DNA of 64,000 nt from Schmidtea nova (lineage: Eukaryota). Below the pieces are notes generated by a model, which made no database searches, had not been told where the DNA came from, and was given only the letters and a program-made list of their open reading frames with translations. This document shows, in pieces, positions 1 through 43,807 of this stretch. The position numbers and the translations under genes were made by a program. Position 1 is the first letter of the stretch. Every line of letters begins with the position of its first letter. The stretch spans positions 454,522,001 to 454,586,000 of the forward strand of contig CM097882.1 of assembly GCA_044892505.1 (NCBI GenBank). The letters are read 5' to 3'.

Positions 1-1276
1 AGTTCAAAATTATCAGAGTCTATTTTTGCTATAGAAAATATGGGAGTTGAAAATCCTATTCAAAATAATTTCTAACTAATTTACTAGTTTTAAAATTTAC
101 ACTTGTTTTTTATTTAGCATTAAAATTTCAGTTAAAAATTACCAGAGTCTATTTTTGCCCGAGAAAAATCTCGGAGTAGAAAATCCTATACAAAATACTT
201 TAATGATAATTTACTTGTTTAAAAAATTTACACGTGTTTTTTATTTACCATTAAATTTTCAGTTCAAAATTATCAGAATCCCTTTTTGCCTGAGAAAAAT
301 ATGGGAGTTGAAAATCTTATTCAAAATAATAGGACTAAAAATCCTATACAAAAAATACCAGACCAAAAATTCATGTATAAAAATTCCATGTACAAAAAAC
401 CCAGAGTCCCTTTTTGCCCTAGAAAATCACGGAGTAGAAAATCATATACAAAATAACCAGAGTAAAATTCCTTTACAAAAATAACCAGATCAAAAAATTA
501 AAATTATTTAAATAAAAATTAAAATAAATAATTAAAATAAATTATTAAAAATAAATTATTAAAAATAAATTAATAAAAATAAATTAATACAAATAAATTA
601 ATACAAATAAATTATTAAAAAATAAATTAATACAAATTAATACAAATAAATTAATACAAATAAATTAATACAAATAAATTAATNNNNNNNNNNNNNNNNN
701 NNNNNNNNNNNNNNNNNNNNNNNNNNNNNNNNNNNNNNNNNNNNNNNNNNNNNNNNNNNNNNNNNNNNNNNNNNNNNNNNNNNNNNNNNNNNNNNNNNNN
801 NNNNNNNNNNNNNNNNNNNNNNNNNNNNNNNNNNNNNNNNNNNNNNNNNNNNNNNNNNNNNNNNNNNNNNNNNNNNNNNNNNNNNNNNNNNNNNNNNNNN
901 NNNNNNNNNNNNNNNNNNNNNNNNNNNNNNNNNNNNNNNNNNNNNNNNNNNNNNNNNNNNNNNNNNNNNNNNNNNNNNNNNNNNNNNNNNNNNNNNNNNN
1001 NNNNNNNNNNNNNNNNNNNNNNNNNNNNNNNNNNNNNNNNNNNNNNNNNNAATAATAAATTAAATTCACTTCATTTAAACAAAAAATTAAAATTAAAAAA
1101 TTCACTTCATTTAAACAAAATAAAAAATAAAAAATTCACTTAATTTAAACAAAATAAAAAATTTAAAAAATTTACTTCATTTAAACAAAAAAATTTTTTT
1201 TTTGGGGGGGGGTAAAAAAATTTTTAGGGGGGAGGGGGGGTCTGTTCCTGTTCTTGGGCGCTCCCCCTACTCTACT
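1..1276. mobile_element. Right terminal arm of a Polinton-like foldback element family (left end outside window)
   Basis: Ends ...GGGCGCTCCCCCTACTCTACT at 1276, the same terminus as 36723 and the reverse complement of 25978. Bases 1-480 are the same CCAGAGTCCCTTTTTGCC...GAAAATCCTATACAAAAT units as 35770-36240, with more substitutions. Next 6 bp are AGCGAT (candidate TSD, partner not in window). Confidence 0.85.
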
Positions 1277-17158: not shown

Positions 17159-17284
17159 ATTTAAATAAGTAAATTATAAGGTGTCCAACTGTACTCATTT
17201 ACTGAGTTTTGTACTCCTTTTTAGCAAACCGTACTCTTTTCAAATCATGTACTCTGAAAGTACTCATTTGTATTTCTAAAACAT

Positions 17285-18611: not shown

Positions 18612-18720
18612 AGTAATGTAATGATTATTAAAAAACAATGTTGTTTATATAATCAACAAGAACGAGTTGTTTTTAAAATAAATATTATTATTCTTGATGT
18701 CTGATATTAAGATAGTTACT
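18612..18720 (+). repeat. 5' LTR of element D
   Basis: Direct repeat of 23011-23119; last base overlaps the PBS. Confidence 0.95.
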
Positions 18721-19894: not shown

Positions 19895-19926
19895 ATGAAG
19901 AAAATCGAAATGACAGGAGAAGAAGC

Positions 19927-22900
19927 ATGAAGTATCAGACGAGCGATGGAAGAGAATGGAGTAAGATGGTTATTAATATGGTTGAAGTAGAAATGTTATG
20001 GGATTCGGGGGCATCAATATCAGTGATGAATGAAGAAACATGGATAAACATCGGAAAACCGAGGTTAGATGCAAGCGATTTGACGATTTGTGGCGTTTTT
20101 CCAGGAAGTAAAAGACCACTGTGACGTACGATGGTAGAGGCGAAATGGAACCAAAAACAGAGGAACATTTGTATTGTTGTTATGAGGGATATTCGACCAG
20201 GGTTTATTGGTGGAGTAGATACAATGAAAGCGTTCGGCAAACAACTGGTGGAAGTGAAAAGTATTGAAGACAATGAGATCAAGACAAACATCAACGACAA
20301 AGACCATTTATTAAAAGCGAAAACAGACTTGCTTAAAAAGGAAAATATCGAGCTCGAGAAATTAATCGCGGATTTTGCTTCAATATTTATGGCAAACAAA
20401 TTCGATTTAGGATATACCACGACGGTACTACATAAAATTAAAACGACTGGTAATCCTGTGATGCAATATCCACGACGACAACCAATGCATCTAGAACGGA
20501 AGGTAGATGACCTAATACAAAAGTAAATAGAAGCAAGGGTGATCATGCGATGTCAGAGTCCATGGAACGCACTATTGGTCATAGTAGGAAAAAAAGACGG
20601 ATCGATCAGAATGTGTGCGGATTACCGGAGTCTAAATAGTCTGACAGAGAAGGAATGTTTTCCGATGCCGAATATCACACAGCTACTGCATTGCTTGGCC
20701 GGAGCGAAGTTTTTCTCATCATAGGATCTGGGTCAAGCATATTATCAAGTGGCATTGGCAGCAGAGTCGCAGGAGAAAACCGCGTTTAGTACGAAAAGCG
20801 GGCAGTTCTGTTTTGAGCGATTACCGTTCGGATTGACAACAGCTCCAACTACATTTCAGAGATTCATGAATACTATGTTAGAAGGTATTCTTTTTAATGG
20901 GGCGGTGGTATATTTAGATGACATCATCATATACGGGAAGGATAAATCGGAACATGACAGCCGGCTAAAAGAAGTTTTTGAAAGAATCAGAGGTACTGGC
21001 GTGAAGATAAACTCGGAGAAATGTAAGATCTACAAGGATAAGTTAATATGTTTAGGGCATACCGTAAGTGAGTTTGGTATTCAAACTAACGAAGAAAAGA
21101 TACGGGTGATTAGGGAAGCTACAAGACCAAAATGTGCGAAACAACTACGCTCATTTTTGGGACTGACGAATTATTATCGAAGATTCGTCAAAGATTATGC
21201 GCGTCTGGCAGCACCACTATATGCAGCAACAACGGAGTGTGATAAGACCTTACAATGGTCTCAAAAATGTGAAACAAGTTTCGAGAATTTAAAAGAAGCC
21301 CCGATGAAAAAACCAATACTGGATTACCCTAGGATGGACAGGGTATTTGTCTTAGATACGGATGCTTGTTTTGAAGCGGTAGGTGCCGTTCTGAGTAAAA
21401 TCACAGAGGAAGGTAAAGAAGTAGTAATTGCGTATGGGTCGAGACACCTCATATCACACGAAAAAGGATACTGTGTGATCAGAAAGGAATTGCTGGCATT
21501 GCATGAGTATGTTACTTATTTTCGTCAATACTTATATGGGAAGAAGTTCATAGCGAGAACCGACCACAAGGCGCTTGTATTTATGAATACGACAAAGAAA
21601 GCGATAAGTCCACAATTCCAAACATGGATGGTGAACTTATCAGAATATAATTTTAAATTTCAGTATCGGAAAGGAGTAGAACATGGGAATGCCGATGGAT
21701 TGTCGAGAGTTGGAGGAATGTTGTGCGCACAACGTCAAACACAACACGAAGAGCCGAAGAAGGAAAGAGCTAGGGTACGATATATTAATTCGATACAAAA
21801 AACTGGCACCATGATGAAAATTATGGAAGAACAAGAGAAGGACAAGGGGTTTCAAGGAGCATGGAATTATATCAATGAAATTTTGAATGAGGAAGAAGAT
21901 TTTTTCAAGAAATCTTTCCTATATGCTCACAAAGACAGATTGAAGATCAACGATGACCTAATTACCGTAGAGAGAGAATCCAATGATTTAGTAGCAGTTC
22001 CAGAGAGCCATCAAAAACAACTGGTTAAGAAGATTCATGAAGAATTATGCATTGTGGGAGGAAAAAAAGTTTTTGATTACATGGAAAATAGTTTTTTCTG
22101 GCCAAAGATGTGTGAAACAGTAAGACACGTTGTACAAGAATGTAGTATATGTGCGAGAAGGAAAGTAGATCAAGGAAGAACGAAAAAACTTTTTATTCCA
22201 CGCGGAAGTAACGGGTTTCTGGAACAAATCGTAGTTGATGTAGCATACATGGAAAAGACAAGATCCGGAAAGAGATATGTGGTTGTCATAATAGATCGGT
22301 TCAGTAAATTAGTATGCCTAACTGCGACAGAGAAGCAAGACGAAATGACGATATTCTGGATTATACTTCATAATTGGATTTATAAATATGGAAAGCCTGA
22401 AAGTATTCTTTCAGACAGAGGGAAAAATTTTGAAGGCAGATATATGAAAGAGAAATTCGAAGTTTTAGGGATTCGTCAAGAATTCTCAGCACCATATCAA
22501 CATCAATCAAATGGATTGGTAGAAAGAGTAATTCGCACGATGAGAGATCTACTGGTGACTTCAATTCTTAGTAACAACAGGCAATATGAATGATGCGAGA
22601 TACTTCCAAGGGTGGAATTCAGCATCAATGCGACGTTTCAAAGCGCCACTAAATATTCTCCATTTGAGATTGTGTATGGACGGAAAGTGTCACTTCATGC
22701 CAATGTACAAGGATCAGAGATCAAAGGCCAAAGAGTTGACGAGAAAGTGGTTCAGAATGCTAAGTTAGTGGCGCATAGAATGAGAATTTTAAAAAAAGAT
22801 CGAAGAGATAAACGTTCTTTTGAAGTGGGGGAGGAAGTATTGGTTCAACGGGAGCCACACAGAAGGAATAAGAATGACATACAATACGATGGACCATATA

Positions 22901-23001
22901 AGATTGTTAGATTTTTGTCGGAACACCAGGTCGAGCTACAATTTCCGGATGCTAGACGACCGAGACGGATAGAGTGGCTGAAGAGATGGCTTCAAAGTTG
23001 A
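19927..23001 (+). pseudogene. pol: Pol of element D with a few stops and frameshifts
   Basis: Protease LWDSGASISVM; RT LPFGL..YLDDIIIY; RNase H DTDAC..RKELLA..NADGLSR; integrase H(C)..C..C Zn region, VVDVAYM, ILSDRG, HQSNGLVER; breaks near 20120, 20524, 20722 and 22590. Confidence 0.92.
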
Positions 23002-23949: not shown

Positions 23950-25450
23950 TTTTTAGTAGAATATCAAAACAAACATACATTTTCCATGTTCTTGTAATTT
24001 ATATTTCTAATAAGCACAATCTATTTCAGCAATCTATACACGAATAGTAATTTATTTATAACATGAACACTTACAATCACCAACAATCTTTAAATTCCAA
24101 TTTATTGTTTTCAGTGATCGTGAATAATGTTGTTTCAATCTAATTTTTTTACACAAAGCTTGATGTTTCTTAAACGGTTTTTGCGTTCGGAATTTATTTA
24201 AACTATATTTTTATAACTTATGAAATTTGTATATTATGTATTTATGAAGTTTATCGTCTTGTTCCAACAATATCAACTATATTGGTTTGACATGTTTAAT
24301 TTTTGTATGATTTAAATGTTTAAGTCGGGATGTTTCATGCCAACATTATCACCATCTTAATTAAGAATTTCTTATTGGTTTTATTATTAAATGTCAAAAC
24401 ATTAATTTTAGAACATCTTTTCTTTTTATTGGCATGTCCATGTGAGAATATTTAATACTGACATAAATTGAATATAATTGTGAGGTCTTTCTCTGTGTGT
24501 ATTATTGGTAATAATATTATATGTCAATATATCAAGAATTCTATAAATGAAACATAAATTACCTTCACTTGCAATATAAATTATAGCATGTTTATTGATA
24601 TATTCTTATGGAGTTTGTATATAACCATGCCCGGATAATCTAATAATTTTTGTGATTTTAAAAAATTATTTCCAAAATAGGATTATGTTGCCAATTACTA
24701 CCTAATTCCCAATATTATTGGATTTGTTTATAGTGATTTTATTCCTTATTCAAAAAATATATGACTTGGCTGTACCATGCTATTTAAAATTTTGATTGAC
24801 TTTATCTCATCATCCTTTAAAAATTCAACATTTATAATAAATTGAGTTTTTACTTATTTCAATTCTTATATTGCCGCATCTAAGATTTTCAATAATAACA
24901 CAGGTAACCAAATATATTCGATTACCACGTTACACATCAATTTTAATAATTTGATGAGTACGATACAAGTCATATTCAATTATTGGTCATTTGAAGTACC
25001 CGCTCCAAACATGTTAAATGTAACATCATTAAAAGTTTTTTTATTTACTGTAGAGCCATCAAAATTGAAAAAATCGTGAATAGATTGTAGTTGGTTGCTT
25101 CAAATTAATATACAATCTTGATATGAATCATCGTCAATAATTAAAAATTCCTCTACTTTACTTTTCATTATTGTTGGTTTTGAGATTTTTATTTTCTTGT
25201 TTCCTTCTAGTTTTTCCGTTATTGATTGTTTTTTTATTTTCTTTTTATTGTTTGTTTTAGTGGAAATGCGTTTACTTTAGCAAATATATTTTTCTTGCTA
25301 GTATAAAATTATGAGAGGTGTGTTTTGAGTTGATTAGAAAATTGTTTGTATGTAATGTATTGTTTTGTGTGGCATGATGGACAAATATAATTGGTTTATC
25401 CTTAAGTTTAAATATTGTACATGTTCACAACTGTATGACGTTGATTTTTG
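23950..25450 (-). pseudogene. Highly decayed Polinton/Maverick-type protein-primed DNA polymerase, N-terminal region
   Basis: Manual translation gives LSGHGYIQTP*EYINKHAIIYIASEGNLCFIYRILDIL (24640-24530), then MPIKRKDVLK, INVL, FKKHQALC and LEFKD. This follows the order of the Polinton pPolB pattern as recalled (GSSY..LP..K.A.INI.N.D..CF.W, FP+.+KD+.KFE, INVF, H...C, L.FKN). Confidence 0.6.
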
Positions 25451-26491
25451 CCGTAGTTGGTAGAGTTGTAATAATTTGGATATTGCAAACATACTAAATT
25501 ATATTTTGAATTAAATTTATTTTAATGATGATTTTTTGAATTTTATTTTAAAATTTTGATGATTATTTTAATACATCAAGACAAAACTAATTAAAAGCTT
25601 TAATTAATTTAGATAAACATGTAGTNNNNNNNNNNNNNNNNNNNNNNNNNNNNNNNNNNNNNNNNNNNNNNNNNNNNNNNNNNNNNNNNNNNNNNNNNNN
25701 NNNNNNNNNNNNNNNNNNNNNNNNNNNNNNNNNNNNNNNNNNNNNNNNNNNNNNNNNNNNNNNNNNNTTCGCAGTCTACAGATGGAATATATGAAATCAC
25801 TAAACTAAATTAGGATCGCTTTAAAGAAACTGGTTCGATAAACAAATATTTGATTAATTTTTTCAATCTAATAATGTGACTTTGAAGATAATCATATTCA
25901 AAGGACGTAGTAATGAAACAGATTAATACATTTTCAGAATTTAAAATTAAAATCTTTTCACCTGAAGATGACAGAGGAGTAGAGTAGGGGGAGCGCCCAA
26001 GAACAGGAACAGACCCCCCTAAAAAAAATTTTTTCACCCCCCTAAAAATTTTTTTACCCCCCCTAAAAATTTTTTTATTTTTTTATTTTGTTTAAATTAA
26101 GTGAATTTTTTTAATTTAATTTTTTTGTTTAAATGAAGTCAATTTAATTTCATTATTTTNNNNNNNNNNNNNNNNNNNNNNNNNNNNNNNNNNNNNNNNN
26201 NNNNNNNNNNNNNNNNNNNNNNNNNNNNNNNNNNNNNNNNNNNNNNNNNNNNNNNNNNNNNNNNNNNNNNNNNNNNNNNNNNNNNNNNNNNNNNNNNNNN
26301 NNNNNNNNNNNNNNNNNNNNNNNNNNNNNNNNNNNNNNNNNNNNNNNNNNNNNNNNNNNNNNNNNNNNNNNNNNNNNNNNNNNNNNNNNNNNNNNNNNNN
26401 NNNNNNNNNNNNNNNNNNNNNNNNNNNNNNNNNNNNNNNNNNNNNNNNNNNNNNNNNNNNNNNNNNNNNNNNNNNNNNNNNNNNNNNNNNN

Positions 26492-27330
26492 TACAAGATG
26501 TTTGATCTGTTTATTTTGTGAATGATTTTTACTCTGGTTGTTTTGAATAGGAATTTCTACTCCGAGATTTTCTAGAGCAAAAAGGGACTCTGGGGTTTTT
26601 GTACAGGAATTTTTGATCTGGATTTTTGAATACAATATTTTTGTATAAGATTTTTTGTCCTATTATTTTGTATAGGATTTTCAACTCCGAGATTTTCTCG
26701 GGCAAAAAGGGACTCTGGATTTTTGTACAGGGAATTTTTATACATGAATTTTTGGTCTGGTATTTTTGTATAGGATTTTGGTCTGGTTATTTGAATAGGA
26801 TTTTCAACTCCCATATTTTTCTCAGGCAAAAAGGGACTCTGGTAATTTTGAACTGAAATTTTAATGGTAAATAAAAAACACGTGTAAATTTTTTAAACAA
26901 GTAAATTATCATTAAAGTATTTTGTATAGGATTTTCAACTCCCAGATATTTTCTAGGGCAAAAATAGACTCTGATAATTTTGAACTGAAATTTTATTGGT
27001 AAATAAAAAACACGTGTAAATTTTTTAAACTAGTAAAATACATTGAAATTATTTTGAATATGATTTTTAATTCCCACAATTTTCTAGGGCAAAAAGAGAC
27101 TCTGGGTTTTTTGTACAGGGAATTTTTGAATAGTATTTTTGATCTGGATTTTTGAATACAATATTTTGGTCTGATATTTTGTAGTGTTTTTAGTCTGGTT
27201 ATTTTGTATAGGATTTTCTACTTCGAGATTTTTCTCGGGCAAAAAGGGACTCTGGTAATTTGGAATATGATTTTTGATCTTGATTTTGTATAGGATTTTT
27301 AGTCTGGTAATTTTGAAAATAATATTTTGG
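26492..27330. repeat. Irregular 55-120 bp tandem units in the left arm, mirrored at about 35440-36267
   Basis: Recurrent GGCAAAAAGGGACTCTGG and GTATAGGATTTTC motifs. Confidence 0.9.
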
Positions 27331-27339
27331 TCGGGGAAA

Positions 27340-28660
27340 ATTGAAAAAATTAAAAAGTGGTCAGAATTCAATAATTTTTATATCAATCTACTGAGAATTG
27401 AAAAGCGAACAATAAAGGTCAAAAAATTAAAATCATGAAAAATTGATCTTTTCCGACCCAATTTTTACATGTAAAAAGGGTCAACTCGGGGAATTTCCAA
27501 AAATCAAAAATGCTCAGAATCAAATAATTTTTATACCAATCTACTGAGAACTGAAAGACAAACAATATTGGTCAAAAATTTAAAAACATGAAAAATTGAT
27601 ATTTTCCGACTCAATTTTTACACGTAAAGGTCAACTCGGGGAATTTCCAAAAAATCAAAAATGCTCAGAATCAAATAATTTTTATACCAATCTACTGAGA
27701 ATCGAATGGCGAACAAAAAAGGTTCAAAAAGTAAAAACATGAAAATTTTGATTTATCCGACTCAATTTTTACACGTAAAAAGGGTCAACTCGTGTATATT
27801 CTAAAAATCAAAAATGTTCAGAATCAAATAATTTTTATACCAATCTACTGAGAATCGAATGGCGAACAAAAAAGGGTCAAAAATTAAAAACATGAAATTT
27901 TGACTTTTCCGACTCAATTTTTACACGTAAAAAGCGTCAACTCGTGTAAATTCTAAAAATCAAAAATGTTCAGAATCAAATAATTTTTATACCAATCTAC
28001 TGAGAATCGATTGGCGAACAAAATAGGGTCAAAAAGTAAAAACATGAAAATTTTGATTTATCCGACCCAATTTTTTCACGTAAAAAGCGTCAACTCGTGT
28101 AAATTCTAAAAATCAAAAATGTTCAGAATCAAATAATTTTATACCAATCTACTGAGAATCGAATGGCGAACAAATAAGGTTCAAAAAGTAAAAACATGAA
28201 AATTTTGATTTATCCGACCCAATTTTTACACGTAAAAAGGGTCAACTCGTGTAAATTCTAAAAATCAAAAATGTTCAGAATCAAATAATTTTTATACCAA
28301 TCTACTGAGAATCGAATGGCGAACAAAAAAGGGTCAAAAATTAAAAACATGAAATTTTGACTTTTCCGACTCAATTTTTACACGTAAAAAGCGTCAACTC
28401 GTGTAAATTCTAAAAATCAAAAATGTTCAGAATCAAATAATTTTTATACCAATCTACTGAGAATCGATTGGCGAACAAAATAGGGTCAAAAAGTAAAAAC
28501 ATGAAAATTTTGACTTATCCGACCCAATTTTTTGACGTAAAAATGGTCAACTCGGGGAAATTCCAAAAATTAAAAAGTTGTCAGAATTCAATAATTTTTA
28601 TACCAATCTACTGAGAATTGAAAAGCATACAATAAAGGTCAAAAAATTAAAATCATGAAA
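27340..28660. repeat. 152-153 bp tandem array in the left arm, with a 3-unit higher-order repeat
   Basis: ACTGAGAA anchors at 27390, 27543, 27694, 27847, 27999, 28151, 28304, 28456 and 28610; only two anchors in the right arm (35150-35410). Confidence 0.95.
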
Positions 28661-29559
28661 AAATCAAAATTTTATACGGGAAATTACAGTCTCAGTAAAA
28701 AAGGGTAAAATACATAAAAACGTGGAAATATTTAAAATAAAAATTTTTAAACTAAATAATTAAATCTAAATAAATTTATGATAATTAAATAAAAAAGTAA
28801 ATAAATTCTATACGAATTTCAAAACTCAGTAAATAATTCACTCATTATTTTGTATTAAATTTATCAAGTAAAATGTTACATTAAATAAAAGCATGGAAAT
28901 AATAAGTAAATTAAAGTTAGAATTTAAAAATAATTTGTACTGGATTTATGAAAAATGGCAAAGTAAATAAATTAAAGATAGAATTTTAAAAATAATTATG
29001 AATTTAGTGATAAATAGAATTATAAGTAAATTAAGAATAAAAAAGTAAATTAAGAAAGACGTGAGTTTTAATGTCATAATTTTAAAATGAATTGGTTTTA
29101 AAGGAACTTTTTAAGGTAATATTTGAAAATGTGAGAATAATTAATTATTTTTGAAATTTTTTAAAGTAAAACCTTTTAACAATAAAGTCAGTGTAGAATT
29201 TTTTATCAATAAAATCAATGTAAAATTTATCAATTAATAAATACAAAGTAAATATTTTTTCGCAAGTAAATATTTTTCACAAGTAAAATTTTTAACTAAT
29301 AAATACAAATCTAATTGTTTTTCAATATGATGTTTTTTAAGGAAATGATCAAATAACAACAAATAAATGTAGTAAATAAAACACATGTAAATATTGAATT
29401 TATTTAGAATAAAAATAGTTATTAAACAAGAGTTGTTACAATTTTGTATACTAAGTTAAAAAATATCGATTAATGACATAAATTTTTAAAAATAAACGTA
29501 ATAATTGAAAATATTGGAACAAGTAAATAATAATAATAATAATAATAATAAGTAACGTC

Positions 29560-30180
29560 TATCAATCAATCTAAGTACCAACAATAAACCGATCAACTAA
29601 CTAATAATCTCATTACACACACAAATAAACCACTGACTAGTAACTGATCAAATGCCAACTGACTCTATTCACAAATCAACAATCAACTAGTTACTTACAA
29701 GTTACCAACTAACTCTTCACATTAACCAAGTAACTAACTAACTATACATACTAACCAGCAACCACTTCCTTACGAACCAACTAGTTCTATACATTAACCA
29801 ACTAACTTTATTCACAAATCACCAACCAACTAACTAACTAACTAACCAGCAACCAATACCTTACTAACCAACTAGTTCTATACATTGACCAACTAACTAT
29901 TTTCACAAATCACCAACCAACTAACTAACTAACTAACTAACCAGCAACCACTTCCTTACTAACCAACTAGTTCTATACATCAACCAACTAACTCTTCACA
30001 TTAACCAAGTAACTAACTAACTATACATACTAACCAGTAACCAATACCTTACTAACCAACAATACATCACCCAACCAACTACACTAACCAACTAACTAGC
30101 TACACATACTAATCTCTTTCTAACCAACTAGTTCTATACATCAACCAACTAACTCTTCACATGAACCAAGTAACTATATA
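29560..30180. repeat. AACCAACTAACT-rich low-complexity tract, mirrored as AGTTAGTTGGTT at about 33665-34270
   Basis: Strong strand asymmetry (A/C-rich versus G/T-rich) with imperfect internal duplications. Confidence 0.9.
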
Positions 30181-30482
30181 TTCGAATATATATATCAAAT
30201 TCCGAATTAATTATTGTTGCCGGGAAAATATTAAAGAAAATTAATTTGTATTTGAATTGTAAACGTATAATCAATTAATAAAACAAAATCAATTTAGAAT
30301 AATTATGATAATAAAATTAATTATTTTTATTTTAATAAAAAACTAATCGATTTTAAATATTTGGTAATAAATATAACACAAAAAATAATTGTTATTAAAA
30401 ATTAAAATTAACCAAAACAAAAAATAAAATAAAATAAAATAAAATAAAATAAAATGAAAAGATAAGATTTGATAAATAAATT

Positions 30483-30940
30483 TTATTCACATATATTTGT
30501 TTCTATAATTTTCCAAACAGGTTTGACAACATCATTAGATTCTTTGAAGTATTGAATCAGTATCTTAATTTGATATATTGAATTTTCATCGGGATTTTTC
30601 AAATTACAATCTTTAATGCAATTCATATACGTAAAAGTTTCATTAAATTGTATTTCTTTGATTGCTAACAAAATTTCTGAAATATTTCGTCTATCAATAT
30701 CTCCAATTTTCCCCACTTGAAGATGATACATGCATTGTTTCAATGTAACAGGTTCCTATAAAATAATTATTAGAAATTTATTTAAAATAAATAAATATAT
30801 ACTTTAAATGAATAAATGATTGGAAATTTTAAATATTCCATCGAGTATTGTAGAAATTGAACTGCAGGATTCCTAACCAAATTTGATGCCGAAATAGAAT
30901 TTTCTTCAAGAATAATTTTCATTACTTCTTGTTTCAACAT
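30483..30940 (-). CDS. Two-exon orphan gene (about 136 aa) inside the foldback element
   Basis: Exon 30940-30803 (MLKQEVMK...IIYSFK), 47-nt intron 30802-30756 (GTATAT...TTTTTATAG), exon 30755-30483 (EPVTLKQCMYH...ETNICE*). Splicing joins two open frames in phase 0. Confidence 0.6.
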
Positions 30941-31529
30941 CTTTTTGTTCGAAGATTCTAGAATAAAATATTAAAAATAATCATTTAAAATTATTTAAAC
31001 TTATTTTTAAGTTGATACATTTTTAATGAAATCTGTAATTTTTAATCAATTTATATATATGTTTTCATAATTAAAATTGACCAATCAGATTTCGTTTAAC
31101 ATTTTTATTAATTTTTATTTATTGATATTTTTGTGTGCAGATACACACTTTATTTTAATATGATAATTAATTAATTATTTATGCAAAATCATTTAATAGA
31201 CAGATTATATCAAAAATATTGTAATGCATCGAATTATGATAAAAACTGTCACAATTCAATGAAAAGTTACTATACCCAAACAGGTAACTGCATCACATAC
31301 ATAATTTGCCCTTTGTGAATAAATTGACTAGTTTTTCTTATTATATCAACTTTTATAAATTTCATAAAGAACATTCGAAACAGATTTAATGTTACAAAAT
31401 TATTACGTGGTAATAATAAAAATTATTAATATTAATAATTCACTGAAAATATTTAAAATGAAAATCAATAAATATTTTGGTAAAATTCATTATTAACAAT
31501 TATATTCAGTATCAGAACTTTTCTAATAT

Positions 31530-32392
31530 AACCTTAGTATCAGAACCTTTCTAGCAGAACCTCTGGTAGCAGAACCTCTTTTGCGATGGTTTTTACCTTT
31601 AAAAGATTCATATTGTATATTCACTTATATACTATTATTGATACTTTTTCATTAAATTTATCACGTAGCAGAACCTTTCTAGCAGAACCTTTGGAAGCAG
31701 AACCTCTTTTGTGATGGTTTTTACCTGTAAAAGATTCATATTGTATATTCACTTATATACTATTATTGATACTTTTTCATTAAATTTATCACGTAGCAGA
31801 ACCTTTCTAGCAGAACCTTTGGTAGCAGAACCTCTTTTGTGATGGTTTTTACCTGTAAAAGATTCATATTGTATATTCACTTATATACTATTATTGATAC
31901 TTTTTCATTAAATTTATCACGTAGCAGAACCTTTCTAGCAGAACCTTTCTAGCAGAACCTTTGGTAGCAGAACCTCTTTTGTGATGGTTTTTACCTGTAA
32001 AAGATTCATATTGTATATTCACTTATATACCATTATCGATACATTTTCATTAAATTTATCACGTAGCAGAACCTTTCTAACAGAACCTTTGGTAGCAGAA
32101 CCTCTTTTGTGATGGTTTTTACCTGTAAAAGATTCATATTGTATATTCACTTATATACTATTATTGATACTTTTTCATTAAATTTATCACGTAGCAGAAC
32201 CTTTCTAGCAGAACCTTTGGTAGCAGAACCTCTTTTGTGATGGTTTTTACCTGTAAAAGATTCATATTGTATATTCACTTATATACCCTTATCGATACAT
32301 TTTCATTAAATTTATCACGTAGCAGAACCTTTCTAACAGAACCTTTGGTAGCAGAACCTCTTTTGTGATGGTTTTTACCTGTAAAAGATTCA
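31530..32392. repeat. 128-bp minisatellite, about 6.5 copies, with internal 14-bp GCAGAACCTTTCTA subrepeats
   Basis: TTTATCAC anchors end at 31664, 31792, 31920, 32062, 32190 and 32318 (spacing 128, 128, 142, 128, 128). Confidence 0.95.
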
Positions 32393-32724
32393 AATTATAT
32401 TTTCATGATTGCAGTTTATGTGAAACCCGATAAAATACACATGTTTGAACCAATGGAATTTTATTATCCATCGCTATTGATGAAAAACATATCGTCAATG
32501 TTGATGTGAATTGGAAATAATAGAATCTGATACTAGAATCCAATAACAAAAACACATGGTAGTACTGTTTAGCATGGTTAATAAAAATGTTTAATAAATA
32601 AATATTTGTATTGAAATTTTGAATTAATTTTTATTATTTTTAGAATTAATTGAATATTTATTTATTTAAATAAACTATTAAATAAAAATGGCAATTTATT
32701 CATATAAATAAGAGAACACCATTT

Positions 32725-32785
32725 TTTAAAATATATTAATGCAATATATTTCGACAGCTTAGCTGTCATCATCAGGCTTTTCACA
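32725..32785 (-). ncRNA. Candidate minimal type I hammerhead ribozyme downstream of the Penelope-like ORF
   Basis: Minus strand reads AAAAGC-CTGATGA-T-GACAGC(TAA)GCTGTC-GAAA-TATA-TT-GCATT: canonical core, 6-bp stem II, palindromic minimal stem III, imperfect stem I. Confidence 0.55.
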
Positions 32786-32884
32786 ATCTCAATAAAATAA
32801 AAATTGATCTTAATTATACGCTTAATAGTGATTACATAATTACATGTGCATAATCCAATAAAACTTTTATTTACCCTAATAAAA

Positions 32885-33685
32885 TTAATTAAACACTCTC
32901 AAAATGCATGTAGATATTGCGTTTTGTATATTTATTTTAGGATTAAATGATTTTATCATCAAAGCCTCACAATTCACACGTTCATAATAATTTTTAAATC
33001 CCCTAGAAAGTATTTTGAAATTAGAAATATCAATGCTCTTCTTGCAAGTCTTATTATGCTCAATAATGTTACTCTTTCCGCTCTTTCTGGCATGTTCTTG
33101 AACTCGTGTACAGAGATGACGGGCAGTCTCTCCAATGTATGTGGTATTACAACCATTACAAGTAAAACGATATACGAGATCAGAACACAGACCAAATGGC
33201 GTCACAGATTTATTACTGAACATGTCACGAACTTTGCAAGACTTAGAAATTATTTTAACATTAGTATTTCCAATATACTTTATAATAGATTTTTTAAAAT
33301 TTACAAATCCCTCAGAAAACGGTAAAACTATAACAGAACCAATGCAATCATTCAAGTTACTTTTATTTATTTCATTATTATTATTGCAATCAACACCATC
33401 ATTCATTCCCATAACAACATCACCTGTTTCAATCAAAGGAGCACTATCAGATGTATTAAACGGATCAACGCCAGGAGAAATCTTTTCATCAATCACATTC
33501 AACTTATTAATACACTTATCAACAGTTTCACTCACCATTCGTTGCAAGAAACATTTTGAATATCCATTATTCTGTAGTAATTTAATTAATTTATCAATAC
33601 TATTTATAGATTTACAATAAGTTGACGGCAATGTCCAAGAACGATGAACCAATCCCCTTATCATTGGTTGGTTGGTACAAGAATA
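32885..33685 (-). mobile_element. 5'-truncated Penelope-like retroelement (RT thumb/linker plus GIY-YIG endonuclease)
   Basis: 259-codon ORF with LVHRSW..NGYS and LVYRFTCNGCNTTYIGETARHLCTRVQEH...EALMIKSFNPKIN, typical of the Penelope-like element (PLE) C-terminus. Confidence 0.9.
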
Positions 33686-36600
33686 ATGAATAGAACTAGT
33701 TGGTCAGAAAGAGATTAGTATGTATAGCTAGTTAGTTGGTTAGTGTAGTTGGTTGGGTGATGTATTGTTGGTTAGTAAGGTATTGGTTACTGGTTAGTAT
33801 GTATAGTTAGTTAGTTACTTGGTTAATGTGAAGAGTTAGTTGGTTGATGTATAGAACTAGTTGGTTAGTAAGGAAGTGGTTGCTGGTTAGTTAGTTAGTT
33901 AGTTAGTTGGTTGGTGATTTGTGAATAAAGTTAGTTGGTCAATGTATAGAACTAGTTGGTTAGTAAGGTATTGGTTGCTGGTTAGTTAGTTAGTTAGTTG
34001 GTTGGTGATTTGTGAATAAAGTTAGTTGGTTAATGTATAGAACTAGTTGGTTCGTAAGGAAGTGGTTGCTGGTTAGTATGTATAGTTAGTTAGTTACTTG
34101 GTTAATGTGAAGAGTTACTTGGTAACTTGTAAGTAACTAGTTGATTGTTGATTTGTGAATAGAGTCAGTTGGCATTTGATCAGTTACTAGTCAGTGGTTT
34201 ATTTGTGTGTGTAATGAGATTATTAGTTAGTTGATCGGTTTATTGTTGGTACTTAGATTGATTGATAGACGTTACTTATTATTATTATTATTATTATTTA
34301 CTTGTTCCAATATTTTCAATTATTACGTTTATTTTTAAAAATTTATGTCATTAATCGATATTTTTTAACTTAGTATACAAAATTGTAACAACTCTTGTTT
34401 AATAACTATTTTTATTCTAAATAAATTCAATATTTACATGTGTTTTATTTACTACATTTATTTGTTGTTATTTGATCATTTCCTTAAAAAACATCATATT
34501 GAAAAACAATTAGATTTGTATTTATTAGTTAAAAATTTTACTTGTGAAAAATATTTACTTGCGAAAAAATATTTACTTTGTATTTATTAATTGATAAATT
34601 TTACATTGATTTTATTGATAAAAAATTCTACATTGACTTTATTGTTAAAAAGTTTTACTTTAAAAAATTTCAAAAATAATTAATTATTCTCACATTTTCA
34701 AATATTACCTTAAAAAGTTCCTTTAAAACCAATTCATTTTAAAATTATGACATTAAAACTCACGTCTTTTTTAATTTACTTTTTTATTCTTAATTTACTT
34801 ATAATTCTATTTATCACTAAATTCATAATTATTTTTAAAATTCTATCTTTAATTTATTTACTTTGCCATTTTTCATAAATCCAGTACAAATTATTTTTAA
34901 ATTCTAACTTTAATTTACTTATTATTTCCATGCTTTTATTTAATGTATCATTTTACTTGATAAATTCAATACAAAATAATGAGTGAATTATTTACTGAGT
35001 TTTGAAATTCGTATAGAATTTATTTACTTTTTTATTTAATTATCATAAATTTATTTAGATTTAATTATTTAGTTTAAAAATTTTTATTTTAAATATTTCC
35101 ACGTTTTTATGTACTTTACCCTTTTTTACTGAGACTGTAATTTCCCGTATAAAATTTTGATTTTTTCATGATTTCAATATTTTGACCTTTATTGTATGCT
35201 TTTCAATTCTCAGTAGATTGGTATAAAAATTATTGAATTCTGACAACTTTTTAATTTTTGGAATTTCCCCGAGTTGACCCTTTTTACATGTAAAAATTGG
35301 GTCGGAAAAGATCAATTTTTCATGATTTTAATTTTTTGACCTTTATTGTTCGCTTTTCAATTCTCAGTAGATTGATATAAAAATTATTGAATTCTGACCA
35401 CTTTTTAATTTTTTCAATTTTCCCCGACCAAAATATTATTTTCAAAAATACCAGACTAAAAATCCTATACAAAATCAAGATCAAAAATCATATTCCAAAT
35501 TACCAGAGTCCCTTTTTGCCCGAGAAAAATCTCGGAGTAGAAAATCCTATACAAAATAACCAGACTAAAAACACTACAAAATATCAGACCAAAATATTGT
35601 ATTCAAAAATCCAGATCAAAAATACTATTCAAAAATTCCCTGTACAAAAAACCCAGAGTCTCTTTTTGCCCTAGAAAATTGTGGGAATTAAAAATCATAT
35701 TCAAAATAATTTCAATGTATTTTACTAGTTTAAAAAATTTACACGTGTTTTTTATTTACCAATAAAATTTCAGTTCAAAATTATCAGAGTCTGTTTTTGC
35801 CCTAGAAAATATCTGGGAGTTGAAAATCCTATACAAAATACTTTAATGATAATTTACTTGTTTAAAAAATTTACACGTGTTTTTTATTTACCATTAAAAT
35901 TTCAGTTCAAAATTACCAGAGTCCCTTTTTGCCTGAGAAAAATATGGGAGTTGAAAATTCTATTCAAATAACCAGACCAAAATCCTATACAAAAATACCA
36001 GACCAAAAATTCATGTATAAAAATTCCCTGTACAAAAAATCCAGAGTCCCTTTTTGCCCGAGAAAATCTCGGAGTTGAAAATCCTATACAAAATAATAGG
36101 ACTAAAAATCTTATACAAAAATATTGTATTCAAAAATCCAGATCAAAAATTCCTGTACAAAAACCCCAGAGTCCCTTTTTGCTCTAGAAAATCTCGGAGT
36201 AGAAATTCCTATTCAAAACAACCAGAGTAAAAATCATTCACAAAATAAACAGATCAAACATCTTGTANNNNNNNNNNNNNNNNNNNNNNNNNNNNNNNNN
36301 NNNNNNNNNNNNNNNNNNNNNNNNNNNNNNNNNNNNNNNNNNNNNNNNNNNNNNNNNNNNNNNNNNNNNNNNNNNNNNNNNNNNNNNNNNNNNNNNNNNN
36401 NNNNNNNNNNNNNNNNNNNNNNNNNNNNNNNNNNNNNNNNNNNNNNNNNNNNNNNNNNNNNNNNNNNNNNNNNNNNNNNNNNNNNNNNNNNNNNNNNNNN
36501 NNNNNNNNNNNNNNNNNNNNNNNNNNNNNNNNNNNNNNNNNNNNNNNNNNNNNNNNNNNNNNNNNNNNNNNNNNNNNNNNNNNNAAAATAATAAAATTAA

Positions 36601-37872
36601 ATTGACTTCATTTAAACAAAAAATTAAAATTTTAAAAATTCACTTAATTTAAACAAAATTAAAAATTAAAAATTTTTTAGGGGGGGGTCTGTTCATGTTC
36701 TTGGGCGCTCCCCCTACTCTACTCAGAGGATCTGATGAAATATATAGTATGGATGTTATATGAATGTTGTTTTTCATTAATTAAATCTTTGCGATGTTTG
36801 ATTTAGTATATATTAAATAAGTTAATTTTTTTTTGTTTGTTAAACAAGTTAATTATCAGAATTAATTTTTTTTTTGTAAAAATACTGATCAAAAATAATT
36901 ATTTCAGATAAAAAAGTTATCAATTTTAATTCATTAGATTTTTTTAATTATAAAAATTTTAAATATATTTTTATATATTATATTTTTATATATAAAAATT
37001 TTATTAAAAAAACTAAATATTTTTTAAATGAGTTTGGATCAGAGCCTTCTTATTATTGTTATATTTTCTTAAATACCAACAAATATTTTTTAATTAATTA
37101 CTTAATGATACAAATAAATAATAAAATATAATTAAAAACTAACATTTATATTTTGGTTCATATTTTTGAAACTAAAAAGAAAAGAAAAGATTTAAATATA
37201 TAAATTAGTTAAATTATAAAACGAAAAAATTATATAGAATTACCAAATTTGAATGTTGGAAAAAATGATTTTCATTTCAATTGTATGTTTTTATTAAGAG
37301 AATTTGGTGTTCTTGACTTTCTTGACCTTATTATTTGCAAATAATTTTATTTGCATGATAATATATAAAGATTTTAACATAATCAATTCATATTTAAGAG
37401 TAGATTTATTATGATATGTATATTTTTAATATTATTAAATTATATATATTTTAAATAAAAATAATGATATTTTGTGGCATATTTTTATTTGGCATGCATT
37501 ATATAATTATACATAACTTTTTCATTTAAAATTATTTAATATAAATAAAAAAATGAATAGATTTACCAAGGCTGAAAGTAGAGTAGGTACTTCAGAATCG
37601 AACAAGCTATAAATCTTTGCTGGAGGTTCTGTATTTTTCGGCGCATGTTTTTTTTTTTTATTAGAATAGATTTTTGACATTTGCTTATGNNNNNNNNNNN
37701 NNNNNNNNNNNNNNNNNNNNNNNNNNNNNNNNNNNNNNNNNNNNNNNNNNNNNNNNNNNNNNNNNNNNNNNNNNNNNNNNNNNNNNNNNNNNNNNNNNNN
37801 NNNNNNNNNNNNNNNNNNNNNNNNNNNNNNNNNNNNNNNNNNNNNNNTTTGAACTTTTTTTTATTATTATTA

Positions 37873-38037
37873 TCAATAATTCTCATAATGATGACTATAG
37901 ATCAAAATTTTTTTTATAAACAATAACACAATAACTAAATAAATAAATAAATAAACAATAACACACTGTGCCGAAATATTGTGTTATTGGTTATAAAAAA
38001 AATTTTGATCTATAGTCATCATTATGAGAATTATTGA
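37873..38037. repeat. Imperfect palindrome of the 63238-63433 family, flanked by gaps
   Basis: TCAATAATTCTCATAATGATGACTATAGATCAAAATT... and its reverse complement; centre partly deleted. Confidence 0.85.
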
Positions 38038-38180
38038 NNNNNNNNNNNNNNNNNNNNNNNNNNNNNNNNNNNNNNNNNNNNNNNNNNNNNNNNNNNNNNN
38101 NNNNNNNNNNNNNNNNNNNNNNNNNNNNNNNNNNNNNNNNNNNNNNNNNNNNNNNNNNNNNNNNNNNNNNNNNNNNNNNN

Positions 38181-38744
38181 CCAATTCGATTTATTTAATA
38201 TATATTGATTATTAATAGATAATTCAGTTTTTAGTAGACGGGAATCAGGACCAATAATATCGAGAGTTGATCTGTACAAACTCTGTGACTGTCTGTATAG
38301 ATTGATTTCCTGTGCAGATAAATGATGCATTGAAAAAGACTGATTGTGATCCAGAGAATTGATTGATAGCGTTGTGAAGTTAGGCATCTCCGATGGGTCC
38401 GAATTGAGGTTCATGAGAGGTCCCTTAATTGATAAACACATCTCTGTTTGTACAGGTTCTTTTCGCATTTCGACATTTCGACATTTTTGCAATTTAGAGA
38501 ACTGACAATTGCTTCTTCTTTGAATGTCAAATAAACAATAAAAACTTATGCATTCATGGTGTCGAACACTGCATTTGTTGCTATAAACTTTGCAGTCGGG
38601 TTCAGATTTTCGTTTTGACGTTTCGATATTGATATTGTTGTTGTTCAGTAAAAATGAATAATTGTGTAGATCTTGGATAAAATGTTGTGGATTCTCAATC
38701 ATGAAAAATCTGTTGATGTAAATTGAGCTGTTGACTGAAGACAT
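38181..38744 (-). CDS. Orphan coding exon (at least 188 aa, runs into a gap)
   Basis: Long stop-free frame, GC-richer than its flanks; no recognised domain. Confidence 0.5.
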
Positions 38745-38927
38745 CGAATCGTTTGAAGTTGCTTACATTTTGTTTGTGTGATCAGCGTGAATAATAAAAT
38801 GTGAATATTAAAACAACGTCTATTAATATTTTTTTTGCTCCATTTAATAATTACTTAAATTAAATTAATTAATTTAAAAAAAATAAAAGAAATTTATAAA
38901 ATTGAATATTTAATCGAAGGCACTACA

Positions 38928-38983
<56 letters not shown>
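38928..38983. repeat. (ATT)n microsatellite
   Basis: About 18 perfect ATT units. Confidence 0.95.
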
Positions 38984-38984
<1 letters not shown>

Positions 38985-40714
38985 TAAAATTATTCTGAAT
39001 GCATTCGTAATTGATTCAATGTTTTCCTCTAAATTTATCCTTATTTATATTTTAAGAAATAAATTATCTATTTTCTTATAAGGATTTATATCAATTTAAC
39101 TTTGATTGATGTTAATCATCAATGAAAACATAGTAGTACTCAGTAAATAATATTTCTTATGTGATAGTTTTAGAACATCTAAATTTGTGTCATTTTCTAG
39201 TAATACTCATGTATTGAGAGAGTATATACTTGAATTTATCAAGAATCTAATTAGCTTCTTAGTTGTTTTGTTGGTATTAATTGTTATTTATTTGATTAAT
39301 AGTTGAATCTTTAATTATTTGGTATTGATTGATTGATGGATAGTTATTTTGTAACTGGCTATAAATTTGAAAAATAATCAATTCTATATTGAATGAAGTT
39401 ATCTTTTAATTCGAATTTATTACATTTGTTTTCTTATTTAATAAATTTTATTTGATTCTTTTAATTCTTTTATACAATATCAATAACTTTGATCTTTCAT
39501 TGAAAACTTAGTCATTTTGTTATATTTAATAACAAGTAATTGTATAAGTGAAAACCAATTTTGTTTGATTTTGACCATCGAGTGTTGTTTTAATTAGATA
39601 AATAAGGTTTACATGTTTATTATTGGTAATTTAATTAAAAATATATTTAATTATTTAAATGCTAACTAAATAATTTAATTTATTTAAAAATGTACAGACA
39701 TTTATTAGTAAGTGATTAGTTAATTGATAGGTAGTATATACTGAGACCTATGATATTTTGATGACTAATTGAAAATTAGTGATTGTGTAGAACTATTTTT
39801 TAATTTTTGATGGTAAGTTTATGTGTGTAGAGTTAATTGATAGTTGATTAGAAGCAAGTTACTGTGAAGAACTTGTTATTTAATGTGTATAAGTAGTTGG
39901 TTAGCGAGTACTTGATTTGTTTATTAACTGATTTAGAGCTATTAGTTTGCCAGTTCAATACTAAAATATTACCGCCATTTCGCCAACAGAAATTTATTCC
40001 CACATGTATCAAATATATTTTCAATCGGCAAAGGTGTTATGGTTAGAATTTAAACTTTGGATTATAAAAATTATGTGGAAAATATAATTAATGAAATAAA
40101 TACAATAATTAATTAAATAAATTTTGTTTGTATTAATTGTTAGTTTTTGATTGTAAAATTTTTGAAAATGTCTTAAAGTAATAGTATTTTTATTTTTTAT
40201 ATTAATTTATTCTTTAGTTTATTTGTTCGAAGTAAATTTTGCATAAAACTATCTCATTTCAATTATCGTAAAATTAAAGTTAATTTATTACTTAATAAAA
40301 TAATTGAATTAATATTTAGTTGATTATTATTTTTAAAAAATTATACAGATAACCACTTTGTTAAAATAAAATCTTTTATTAAATAAAGTTGTTAAAATTT
40401 AGAATATATTTAAAATACAAATGATTTTTAAACAAATCTTTATTGAAATCATTGCCCATCTTATTTTTAACTTGATAACCAACATGTATAATTATTTTAA
40501 AAATCATTATCAAAACCCCATTAACTAGGTAAACCTTTTAAAATAATAAGAGAACCAACTAATAAAATATTTCTTGATACTTCTTATTAAATTTTCAAAT
40601 TAATTCTCCACTCCGTTAAAAGATATCCTTAGTCAATTCAAAGTTATCACTAACAATTCACCTAAAATCAATAATAATTAATTAAAATATTCATTACAAA
40701 ATATTACTTTAAAT

Positions 40715-41142
40715 CAGGGGTGTCAAGCCTTTTGAAACCTAGTGCCAAATGTAATTTTTTATATGACCTTGCGGGCCAAGGGTGAAATTTGTAAGTGGTG
40801 GACGGCTCGCCAATTCCGAATGCGTTCACCAAGCGTCGTAAGTTACCCCAGCGAGGGCTCGGCCGGAGCCCCAGCCGCCAACAGTTTTTGCAGCTTTTGG
40901 TGTCGAATTGGCCTGTTTCTGTGCTATATGACATTATGTTATTGAACATTTTGCGTAAATAGTTTTTGATTATTTACAATATGTTGATTGCAATGGCGGC
41001 CGCTTGATTGCTGGACTGAAGGCCTGGATGTAATAGTCGTAATTAATGTTAAATTTTTTACAACCTCCGTACAAGACGGAGGGCCAAAAAAGACAAGTCA
41101 ACGGGCCAAATTTGGCCCGTGAGCCAACCTTTGACACCCCTG
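40715..41142. mobile_element. Non-autonomous hAT element (Charlie/Buster-type TIR)
   Basis: 12-bp TIR CAGGGGTGTCAA / TTGACACCCCTG; TSD CTTTAAAT/CTTTAAAA (7 of 8). Confidence 0.85.
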
Positions 41143-41299
41143 CTTTAAAAGAAAAAATAACATTAAGTATATACATTTTGAATAAACTTTGCCATAATTA
41201 AATTCTCACTTAAATTCTCACTGCAATCAAATCTTCATAAAACTCCTTAATTTATAAGTATTTGAAATTAATAGATAAAAGCTTGAAATTTGTTAATTT

Positions 41300-41850
41300 G
41301 TTAAAAATACCTGACCAAAATCCCTCTTCAAAAATCCCAGAGTCCCTTTTTGCCCAAGAAAAATCCTGGCAGTAGAAAATCCTATACAAAATATCAGAAC
41401 TAAAATTCCCTAAAGTCCCTTTCTTGCCTGAAGAAATTGTGAGAGTTGTAAATACTATTAAAAAAATATCAGATAAAAATATCAAATATAAAATACTGAG
41501 AATTAATATCCCTGTTCAAAAGACCCAGAGTCCCTTTTTGCCCTAGAAAGATATGGGAGTAGAAAAAATATCAGACCGAAATTCCCCATACAAAATACTG
41601 AGACCGAAAAATCATATTCAAATATATCAGACCAAATTTTCTCTGTACAAAAAACCAAGAGACCTCTTTTGCCCGAGAAAATTCTGAGAGTAAAAAATAC
41701 TATACAAAACATCATACTAAAATTCCCTGTACAAAAGATAAACCAAATTTCCCTATAGAAAACACCGAGACCGAAAAATCATATTCAAAAATATCAAACC
41801 AAAATTGCCTGTTCAAAATACTAAGATCAAAATACTCTTTAAAAAACAGA
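41300..41850. repeat. Diverged copy of the foldback-arm tandem units
   Basis: Repeated CCAGAGTCCCTTTTTGCCC(T/A)AGAAA and AAAATCCTATACAAAAT motifs in right-arm orientation. Confidence 0.75.
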
Positions 41851-41864
41851 GACCCTTTTACTTT

Positions 41865-42260
41865 TAAGGGGAAATTGTGTCAAAATTCAATTATTAGGAG
41901 AAGACTCTAAAAGAATCGCATAATAACAGCCAGTGCCAGTTTCGTCGAAGCGAAATAATTGTCGGAAACAGTAAAGAAAAAAGGAAAACACATTTGGTAC
42001 TAAAACAAAGAGAGTACAGAACCCAACATTAGCAAATCAAAAGCGTATCAGAAAGGGAACCACACATACTTGGTAGACCTACCCCTATCGCTTGAATAAA
42101 GAAGAGTATGGAGTGTACTAAAGAAAACATAAATTGTATTGATTAATCGTTTGAATTTTGTTGAATTCAATAACATTTATTGTGATGGGTTTCGGTGATT
42201 TTCAATTATATGAGCATGAGGAGTCAGATACGAAACTGACTTAAAACAAATAATCCAACA
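41865..42260 (+). mobile_element. 5'-truncated family Y LTR
   Basis: AAAAGCGTATCAGAAAGGG..GGTAGACCTACCCCTATCGCTT..AATAAC..GAGTCAGA..ATCCAACA, matching 11150-11366. Confidence 0.7.
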
Positions 42261-42299
42261 ATTTCAATTTTGAGGTCGAATCGTAAAACTTGAGAATCC

Positions 42300-42720
42300 A
42301 TTGGGAATCTTTGGTAAATACATTTGGTGTATCCATTTCCTTATTATTATAATGAGATTTATTTGCTGGCGCACAGTTGTTAATGATATAAACTAATTCA
42401 CTAACGAATTTTGACGGCAAAATACATTTTAGTTAGAAAACACAATCACTAAGTTTGACAGACTTGATAGTGGCCTCTCAAGCTTCGGCTTGTACAATTA
42501 TTTAATCTAGAGATTATTCAGAATAAAAGGCTCGTATAAAGGAAGTAATTGATGATGAAAATGCATATAAAAGCCGAGGAGAATGATAAAGTTTGATCAT
42601 AAAGTTTGTCAAATTCAATAAGGTTATTAAAAGAATAAAATCTTTGCTAAAGGATCATGATAGTTTATCTTCGATTAATTTAGTTAAATAATTTTTTAAT
42701 TATCCAGAAAAATTGTAAAG
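42300..42720 (+). pseudogene. Possible decayed Penelope-like RT N-terminal remnant
   Basis: Stop-riddled frame LIVASQASACTII*SRDYSE*KARIKEVIDDENAYK loosely resembles the PLE pattern I.ADK...VI....Y..K...L.D...Y. Confidence 0.3.
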
Positions 42721-43590
42721 AACGTGAATTGTGTATTTGTGATGAGTACAATAAATATGAGCACGAGTAGAGCCAAATTAGCGTACTAATCTTCCAGAAA
42801 ACTTTAGAAACTCAACAAATCCCATATTGGTTTGATTATTAAAACAAAAAACGAAAACACTCTAAATTTATGCTAACACTTTTACCATGTTCTTTAATAT
42901 ATAAATAATTTATAAATTTTTATTTTAAAATCTGTGATCACTGAACCGATAATTCTGAGTGTAATTTCTTGATAAAGAATTTGATAATAATTCAAAAATA
43001 ATAAAAATTTGATTTTTATTTAAATATTTTATTATTATGATTAATATAAAAGATTTAATAATAATTCAAAAATTATTATAATTCAAAAATGATTATAATT
43101 CAAAAATGATNNNNNNNNNNNNNNNNNNNNNNNNNNNNNNNNNNNNNNNNNNNNNNNNNNNNNNNNNNNNNNNNNNNNNNNNNNNNNNNNNNNNNNNNNN
43201 NNNNNNNNNNNNNNNNNNNNNNNNNNNNNNNNNNNNNNNNNNNNNNNNNNNNNNNNNNNNNNNNNNNNNNNNNNNNNNNNNNNNNNNNNNNNNNNNNNNN
43301 NNNNNNNNNNNNTTATAAAGAATTTAATAATAATTTTGAATTGTGTATATTTGTGATGAGTACAATAAATATGAGCACGAGTGGAGCCAAATTAGCGTAC
43401 TAATCTTCCAGAAAATTTTAATAACTCAACAAATCCAATATAGGTAGTCTTGACGCCTTATTGCAACTCTAAATTTAATAATAAAACATCATACCGAATG
43501 TTTATTTGATTATTAAAATAAAATTCAAGAAAACTATATATTTATGTTATGTTTTTACCATGTTTTTTAATATATAAATAATTTATAACA
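42720..43590 (+). repeat. Local direct duplication across a gap
   Basis: 42726-42920 and 43338-43586 share TGATGAGTACAATAAATATGAGCACGAG..CCAAATTAGCGTACTAATCTTCCAG with several differences. Confidence 0.8.
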
Positions 43591-43807
43591 CACGCACTCA
43601 AAATCCTCACACTCCAATATTCACAAACATCAATATGATTAGAAACAACGCTAAATCCCATTAATTGACTATGTTATGAAACTCGACTTCTCTGTATTGC
43701 TCTGTATTCAAGTTTCAGAGCATAGTAAATTACTGGGATTTAGAGTTGTTTCCAACCATATTAATGTTTGTGAATATTGGAGTGTGAGGATTTTGAGTGC
43801 GTGTGTT
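43587..43807. mobile_element. Foldback/MITE-like inverted repeat (about 220 bp)
   Basis: AACACACGCACTCAAAATCCTCACACTCCAATATTCACAAACAT and its exact reverse complement, extending imperfectly to about 75-80 bp arms; no clear TSD. Confidence 0.75.

Follow-up and report, generated by a model that had tools for sequence, protein, structure and literature searches.

The 64,000-nt window analyzed here (the whole stretch, from assembly GCA_044892505.1 of Schmidtea nova, contig CM097882.1, forward-strand positions 454,522,001 to 454,586,000) contains a 10,746-bp mobile element at positions 25978-36723. Two long inverted arms built of satellite repeats enclose a core of 3,544 bp with a spliced gene, a minisatellite and a fragment of a Penelope-like retroelement (Table 1). 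The element is well bounded; the enzyme that inserted it cuts with a 6-bp stagger and is not encoded by the element itself. Its ends resemble those of Polintons (Mavericks), and we give roughly even chances to the view that it is a non-autonomous derivative of such an element, moved by a helper.

Table 1. Coordinates of the element, its components and its relatives in the window.
Feature	Position	Strand	Remark
Left target-site duplication, 6 bp, CAGAGG	25972..25977	+	exact match with 36724-36729
Right target-site duplication, 6 bp, CAGAGG	36724..36729	+	exact match with 25972-25977
Left inverted arm, 4,164 bp	25978..30141	+	
Conserved terminal 39 bp: (AGTAG)2, then G-run	25978..26016	+	38-39/39 identical among three termini
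125/132-bp satellite module of left arm	26524..27217	+	related copies in arm 1-496 and at 41303-41859
152-bp satellite, 9 units, left arm	27331..28661	+	
AAC-rich 91/95-bp repeat module, inner end of left arm	29561..30176	+	
Last two exons of core gene	30957-30803, 30755-30483	-	AG/GT splice sites, open frame
128-bp minisatellite, ~7 units, 14-15-bp subrepeats	31530..32405	-	
Minimal hammerhead-ribozyme core in Penelope 3' repeat	32749..32775	-	descriptor match
5'-truncated Penelope-like open reading frame, 259 codons	33664-32885	-	GIY-YIG motifs present
Right inverted arm, 3,038 bp	33686..36723	-	
End of second, diverged family member, leaves window; different flank	1..1276	-	exact terminal 21-mer
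Older degenerate arm fragment without terminus	41303..41859	-	satellite identity 68-84%, z 36.7

Boundaries, termini and arms

The 6-bp target-site duplication (TSD) proposed in a first-pass annotation of this sequence is exact on both sides of the element, and among the flank lengths of 2-12 bp that were tried only 6 bp gave a match. Two random hexamers from the window would agree with a probability of ~0.001, and the one complete insertion (1/1) carries a TSD of the length typical of Polintons/Mavericks. Both ends open with AGTAGAGTAG. The terminal direct repeat AGTAG-AGTAG, which had also been annotated, is found with its AG start at all three termini in the window, namely the two ends of the element and a third terminus at position 1276. 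The exact terminal 21-mer occurs three times in the window and never in 100 shuffles, while the terminal 24-mer has no match in bacterial and archaeal genomes.

The inverted match between the two ends reaches one base past the termini, the first and last TSD bases being complementary by chance. A boundary one base further out, with a 4-bp TSD and an end that starts with G in the manner of Sola2-like elements, would need two chance base matches. It is also contradicted by the third terminus, where the base outside is T, not G, and the element boundary is therefore fixed.

The outer 39 bp hardly vary, whereas the arm inward of them has diverged. In the arm at 1-1276 all 39 terminal bases are shared with the left end of the element and the satellite is only 80-90% identical. 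Such conservation of the extreme end across family members is expected of a cis-acting sequence, and the terminal 39 bp likely constitute a cis-acting end. The G-run within them can pair with a C-run ~25 nt further inward, but the terminal hairpin fold is not clearly better than those of shuffles (z -1.4 to -2.2) and was not used as evidence.

The annotation of near-identical arms of about 4.2 and 3.0 kb, composed of modular satellites and amounting to two thirds of the element, holds up closely. The arms make up 67% of the element and are 98.9% identical (2,690 of 2,720 aligned columns, from which the ~320-330 unreadable N bases in each arm are excluded), with 99.0-99.5% identity module by module; 30 substitutions and several indels separate them. 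From the outside inward, each arm starts with the conserved 39-bp end and continues with a tract of C-runs and A/T-tracts that is variable, the 125/132-bp satellite, the 152-bp satellite, an AT-rich spacer and the AAC-rich 91/95-bp module, which reaches ~35 bp further in the left arm than in the right. The difference in arm length is mainly due to one 1,066-bp gap. Two 152-bp units are present in the right arm, 99% and 98% identical to units 1 and 9 of the left arm, and the seven inner units of the left arm are only 68-86% like right-arm units. We read this asymmetry as the probable loss of seven units on the right, after or around insertion, and not as a recent expansion on the left. A composite transposon, in which each arm would be a complete element, was considered and rejected, as the inner ends of the arms carry no terminal motif.

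Relatives of the element occur on both sides. Besides the complete copy, there is one lone terminus with a different flank and one degenerate arm; near 39860-39905, upstream of the degenerate arm and in the correct order, lies a weak 47-bp match (z 5-6) to the inner arm module. Judging from sequence divergence, the window holds three family members of different age.

Some features of the ends and of the insertion site are recorded here in their own right. A fourth AGTAGAGTAG at 37577 lacks the subsequent terminal sequence, falls inside the continuation of a nuclear-receptor-like frame (described below) and is probably a chance occurrence. The subterminal C-runs (26013-26077 and 1200-1240) are split by A/T palindromes and differ in number between termini; their opposite strand might form G-quadruplexes. 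When the element is removed from its insertion site (25880-25977 joined to 36730-36800), one frame is briefly open between AG and GT, and the insertion may have split a small exon.

Contents of the core

The core was expected to hold a spliced orphan gene, a minisatellite and a Penelope-like fragment. All three are present, and only the word orphan has to be given up. Our model of the gene comprises its last two exons, with any upstream exons lying outside the model; the two are separated by a 47-nt intron and give 426 nt without an internal stop. An exhaustive protein search with the last exon, covering 1.84 billion representatives, returned four matches, of which one, P0001 (57% identical over 76 aa), is the sole convincing relative; three weak matches to repeat proteins were dropped. 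Searches of Pfam and PHROGs were blank, word-seeded searches at near or longer lengths gave no match, and comparison with PDB sequences gave nothing below E 0.45. A winged-helix lead (Atlas, 0.84-0.87) did not recur with P0001, which gave no usable match. The predicted fold (pLDDT 45.8) is uninformative; compared with PDB and viral libraries at E 0.001, it matched nothing. The spliced gene can be assigned neither to the host nor to the element.

Each 128-bp unit of the minisatellite is preceded by a pyrimidine-rich AG, and a unit is possibly a putative 60-nt exon followed by a 68-nt intron. Two of the three phases of these units are open, one of them as a basic peptide repeat.

The Penelope-like open reading frame shares 58% identity with the C-terminal 265 aa (residues 369-633) of P0005, a protein with reverse transcriptase (RT) and GIY-YIG domains, and matches Pfam GIY-YIG with E 0.002; the copy retains the C-terminal part only and most of the RT is missing. 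The hammerhead core lies ~110 bp beyond the stop codon and was found with a descriptor of our own, which has no other match in the window and would be expected to match 0.017 times per simulated window. Rfam, run on 25000-42500, did not detect it and gave three sub-threshold matches, none of them credible. Minimal hammerheads mark the flanking repeats of Penelope-like elements (PMC4209133). The core fragment agrees with these elements in its C-terminal part, which runs from RT to GIY-YIG, and in its flanking repeat, where the minimal hammerhead has a palindromic helix III. Unlike them, the fragment is 5'-truncated and without most of its RT. At its junction with the right arm, on the inner side, the copy adjoins arm-like sequence, and in the simplest order of events the Penelope was probably inserted later and trimmed the arm there. 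Because the arms suggest less than 1% divergence, its open frame is not evidence of selection.

The absence of Polinton genes was borne out. All 50 stop-free frames of at least 45 aa in the element were scanned with Pfam, and GIY-YIG was the only meaningful match. No protein-primed DNA polymerase B (pPolB) was found in these frames, although heavily frameshifted relics could be missed, and none of them contained a retroviral-like integrase, an ATPase, a protease or a capsid gene; PHROGs, run on four frames, was likewise blank. The longest frames (272 and 166 aa) both lie over the Penelope copy, and there is therefore no room for a Polinton gene. An rve match at 20725-22590 was rejected as the integrase of the element; it lies outside, together with the RT and RNase H of a long terminal repeat (LTR) retrotransposon.

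Affinities and origin of the element

In Mavericks, 6-bp TSDs occur together with repeated end-motifs that are expected to allow jumping-back (PMC8097293). The element has in common with Polintons/Mavericks the 6-bp TSD, the AG start, the short repeated end-motif and long terminal inverted repeats (TIRs) (PMC8097293; 10.1101/2023.08.22.554363). It differs in having no pPolB, integrase, ATPase, protease or capsid, in TIRs of 3-4.2 kb that are built of satellites, and in a repeat unit of 5 nt instead of 2-3 nt. Since the 6-bp TSD, the AG start and the terminal direct repeat occur together, and TSDs in the usual foldback superfamilies are of other lengths, Polinton-type ends are the best fit. The first-pass annotation had called the element a Polinton-parasitic vehicle; the ends agree with this, while dependence on a helper is something we infer. 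The element works like a non-autonomous Polinton but falls outside Polintons proper by its lack of core genes, its size (10,746 bp, against 13-25 kb) and the length of its TIRs (against ~100-1,500 bp).

Under the reading that we favor, a complete Polinton elsewhere in the genome would supply an integrase and a protein-primed polymerase that recognize the conserved ends, and the terminal AGTAG repeat would be used for jumping-back initiation. The displaced single strand could close into a panhandle, which would keep the arms alike and could lengthen them when one end is copied onto the other. The spliced gene would be accessory or cargo DNA that once adjoined the TIR in the parent, and the Penelope copy would have jumped in later, shortening the inner end of the right arm.

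Several points weigh against this reading. The TSD evidence is one testable pair only, and one complete copy cannot prove that the gene-less form ever moved. The three vertebrate end-motifs (AGT)2, (AG)3 and (AC)3A do not include (AGTAG)2, and arms of 4,164 and 3,038 bp exceed the TIRs reported in the cited sources (46-1,447 bp; 100-1,500 bp; ~2 kb). Satellite-built, asymmetric arms are typical of cut-and-paste foldbacks (PMC3573991, PMC4079207). Within the 64-kb window, Pfam found no Polinton family in 127 further flank frames, and no autonomous partner with these termini was seen.

The most serious of the other explanations, though an unlikely one, is a dead remnant, in which a complete long-armed Polinton inserted here and lost its core genes in place by one large deletion, so that the form without genes was never mobile. 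Degraded or incomplete copies make up the majority of Maverick loci (PMC8097293; 10.1101/2022.07.12.499685), this copy has already been hit by a 1,066-bp deletion and a Penelope insertion, and its 10.7 kb falls short of the 13-25 kb of intact elements (10.1101/2023.08.22.554363). However, no trace of a core gene is left, although with arms only 0.5-1% apart there was little time for genes to decay, and the parent would need TIRs of ~4 kb, above all reported lengths found in these sources. Slightly less probable is a foldback of another cut-and-paste family with 6-bp TSDs, whose satellites would be arrays of transposase sites (compare Galileo, Tetris and FB) and whose Polinton-like end would be convergent. 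The architecture suits such an origin well, with long, internally repeated TIRs, unequal unit numbers and a variable middle, a pattern proposed to have arisen independently in several lineages of transposable elements (PMC4079207, PMC3573991). The TSDs do not, at 8-11 bp in MULEs (PMC6446971), 8-10 bp in Tetris (PMC4079207) and 7 bp in Galileo (PMC3573991) against flanks that mismatch here at lengths 7-12. A terminal direct repeat, moreover, has no role in cut-and-paste transposition. The ends of Ginger and IS3EU elements have T as their first base and lack the AG start.

A bolder variant of Polinton ancestry, to which we give slightly less credence still, is that the family represents integrated copy-back (snap-back) defective Polinton genomes, in which both arms would derive from one parental end through template switching on a panhandle. 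The arms would then breed satellites and the loop would capture different host genes in each copy, here the spliced gene and possibly, beside the degenerate arm at 38-42 kb, the nuclear-receptor-like frame. Its evidence is one complete copy and one weak neighbor. By far the least probable explanation is an assembly artefact, a read foldback or mis-join by which one arm became duplicated and inverted. The window is repeat-dense, and long reads are known to produce spurious inverted duplications of great length. Nevertheless, the arms differ by their substitutions and indels, including seven distinct satellite units, and the inversion ends one base outside the termini, flanked by a direct and not an inverted 6-mer. 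The third terminus has a flank of its own and therefore argues for a family, not an assembly foldback. With all readings combined, the ends of the element are probably Polinton-derived.

In Repbase usage, an N in a family name such as Polinton-1N1_DR stands for non-autonomous. That zebrafish family is named in PMC9341505 and can be likened to the present element, as one of Polinton type without core genes, by name only. Tlr1, which has sometimes been regarded as a non-autonomous Polinton (PMC5499653), has a helicase and viral-type genes of its own, and Polinton-N1A_NV keeps a capsid gene (PMC11296320), both unlike the element described here. Nematode Mavericks share with it an intron-bearing cargo gene beside the TIR (10.1101/2022.07.12.499685). 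Butterfly polintons share the loss of polB and an inserted retroelement, there a LINE or LTR element, and appear to be mobile still after these changes, with TIRs of ~2 kb (10.1101/2025.02.07.637071). The nematode and butterfly elements keep other core genes and the 2-kb TIRs contain genes, whereas here there are none and the arms are non-coding satellites. Tetris, Galileo and FB-NOF (PMC4079207, PMC3573991) resemble the element in their long modular TIRs, unequal repeat numbers and variable middle, and also in that the longest TIRs belong to non-autonomous copies. They differ in TSD length (7-11 bp across foldback elements) and in having no AG start with a terminal repeat; the maximum TIR of Galileo is 1.26 kb, about a third of the arms here (PMC3573991). 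For the anole, no non-autonomous Polintons are noted (PMC3014272), and Maverick expansions are reported in Dugesia (10.64898/2025.12.11.693146).

Intron-bearing Polinton cargo, polB-less polintons that carry transposons and foldback architecture are thus already published, the last for several lineages, and to call the element an undescribed system, as the first-pass annotation did, was an overstatement. Among the open-licence matches listed, we found no description of gene-free, Polinton-ended elements with satellite arms of 3-4 kb, although Repbase and Kapitonov and Jurka 2006 may have similar ones, nor of an (AGTAG)2 end with a 5-nt repeat. The further suggestion that the element is a vehicle for moving host-like genes was not substantiated, given one complete copy, a gene that can be placed with neither host nor element and a Penelope fragment that seems to have been inserted later.

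If a helper with the same ends exists, Polintons would join the Mutator and P-family transposons in having a foldback life stage, and a 39-bp minimal end would be defined for Polinton integration and replication, both steps that are still inferred. How arm length and satellite number vary from copy to copy would bear on the copying of TIRs through a panhandle. Gene-less elements evade protein-based surveys of Polintons, and in AT-rich animal genomes they could give rise to dispersed satellites and inversions and could contribute to the movement of genes. Should the copy-back reading be true, the element would be a gene shuttle in the form of a defective-interfering satellite of an endogenous DNA virus, and its presence in the genome would be direct evidence of a panhandle intermediate. 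A one-off deletion remnant would be of little importance.

Surroundings of the element

GC content in the window is low, introns are short, and Gypsy-type, hAT and piggyBac-type elements are dense, features that would be in keeping with a planarian. Next to the element, on the minus strand, lies a degenerate frame with a nuclear-receptor DNA-binding domain (38762-37525; domain 38762-38185, E 6e-4 to NR4A chains), a domain that is indicative of an animal. A palindromic element interrupts the frame. The position of the frame, inward of the degenerate arm, matches that of the minus-strand frames in the main element with respect to their arm, and the frame may be cargo of an older relative. Near-perfect palindromic elements of ~200 bp without a loop are found at 63230-63441, 43587-43807 and 37848-38037, with related pieces at 6363-6502. 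Small hAT-type elements lie at 46548-47167, inside a larger degenerate hAT element, and at ~40718-41143. The exact 8-bp TSD of the former was also recovered by our census of TIRs and TSDs, for which it served as an internal control. Broken Gypsy-type LTR retrotransposons occupy 13000-17200 (minus strand) and 18680-23000 (plus strand), and at 55600-58700 a piggyBac-type element encloses a hAT fragment.

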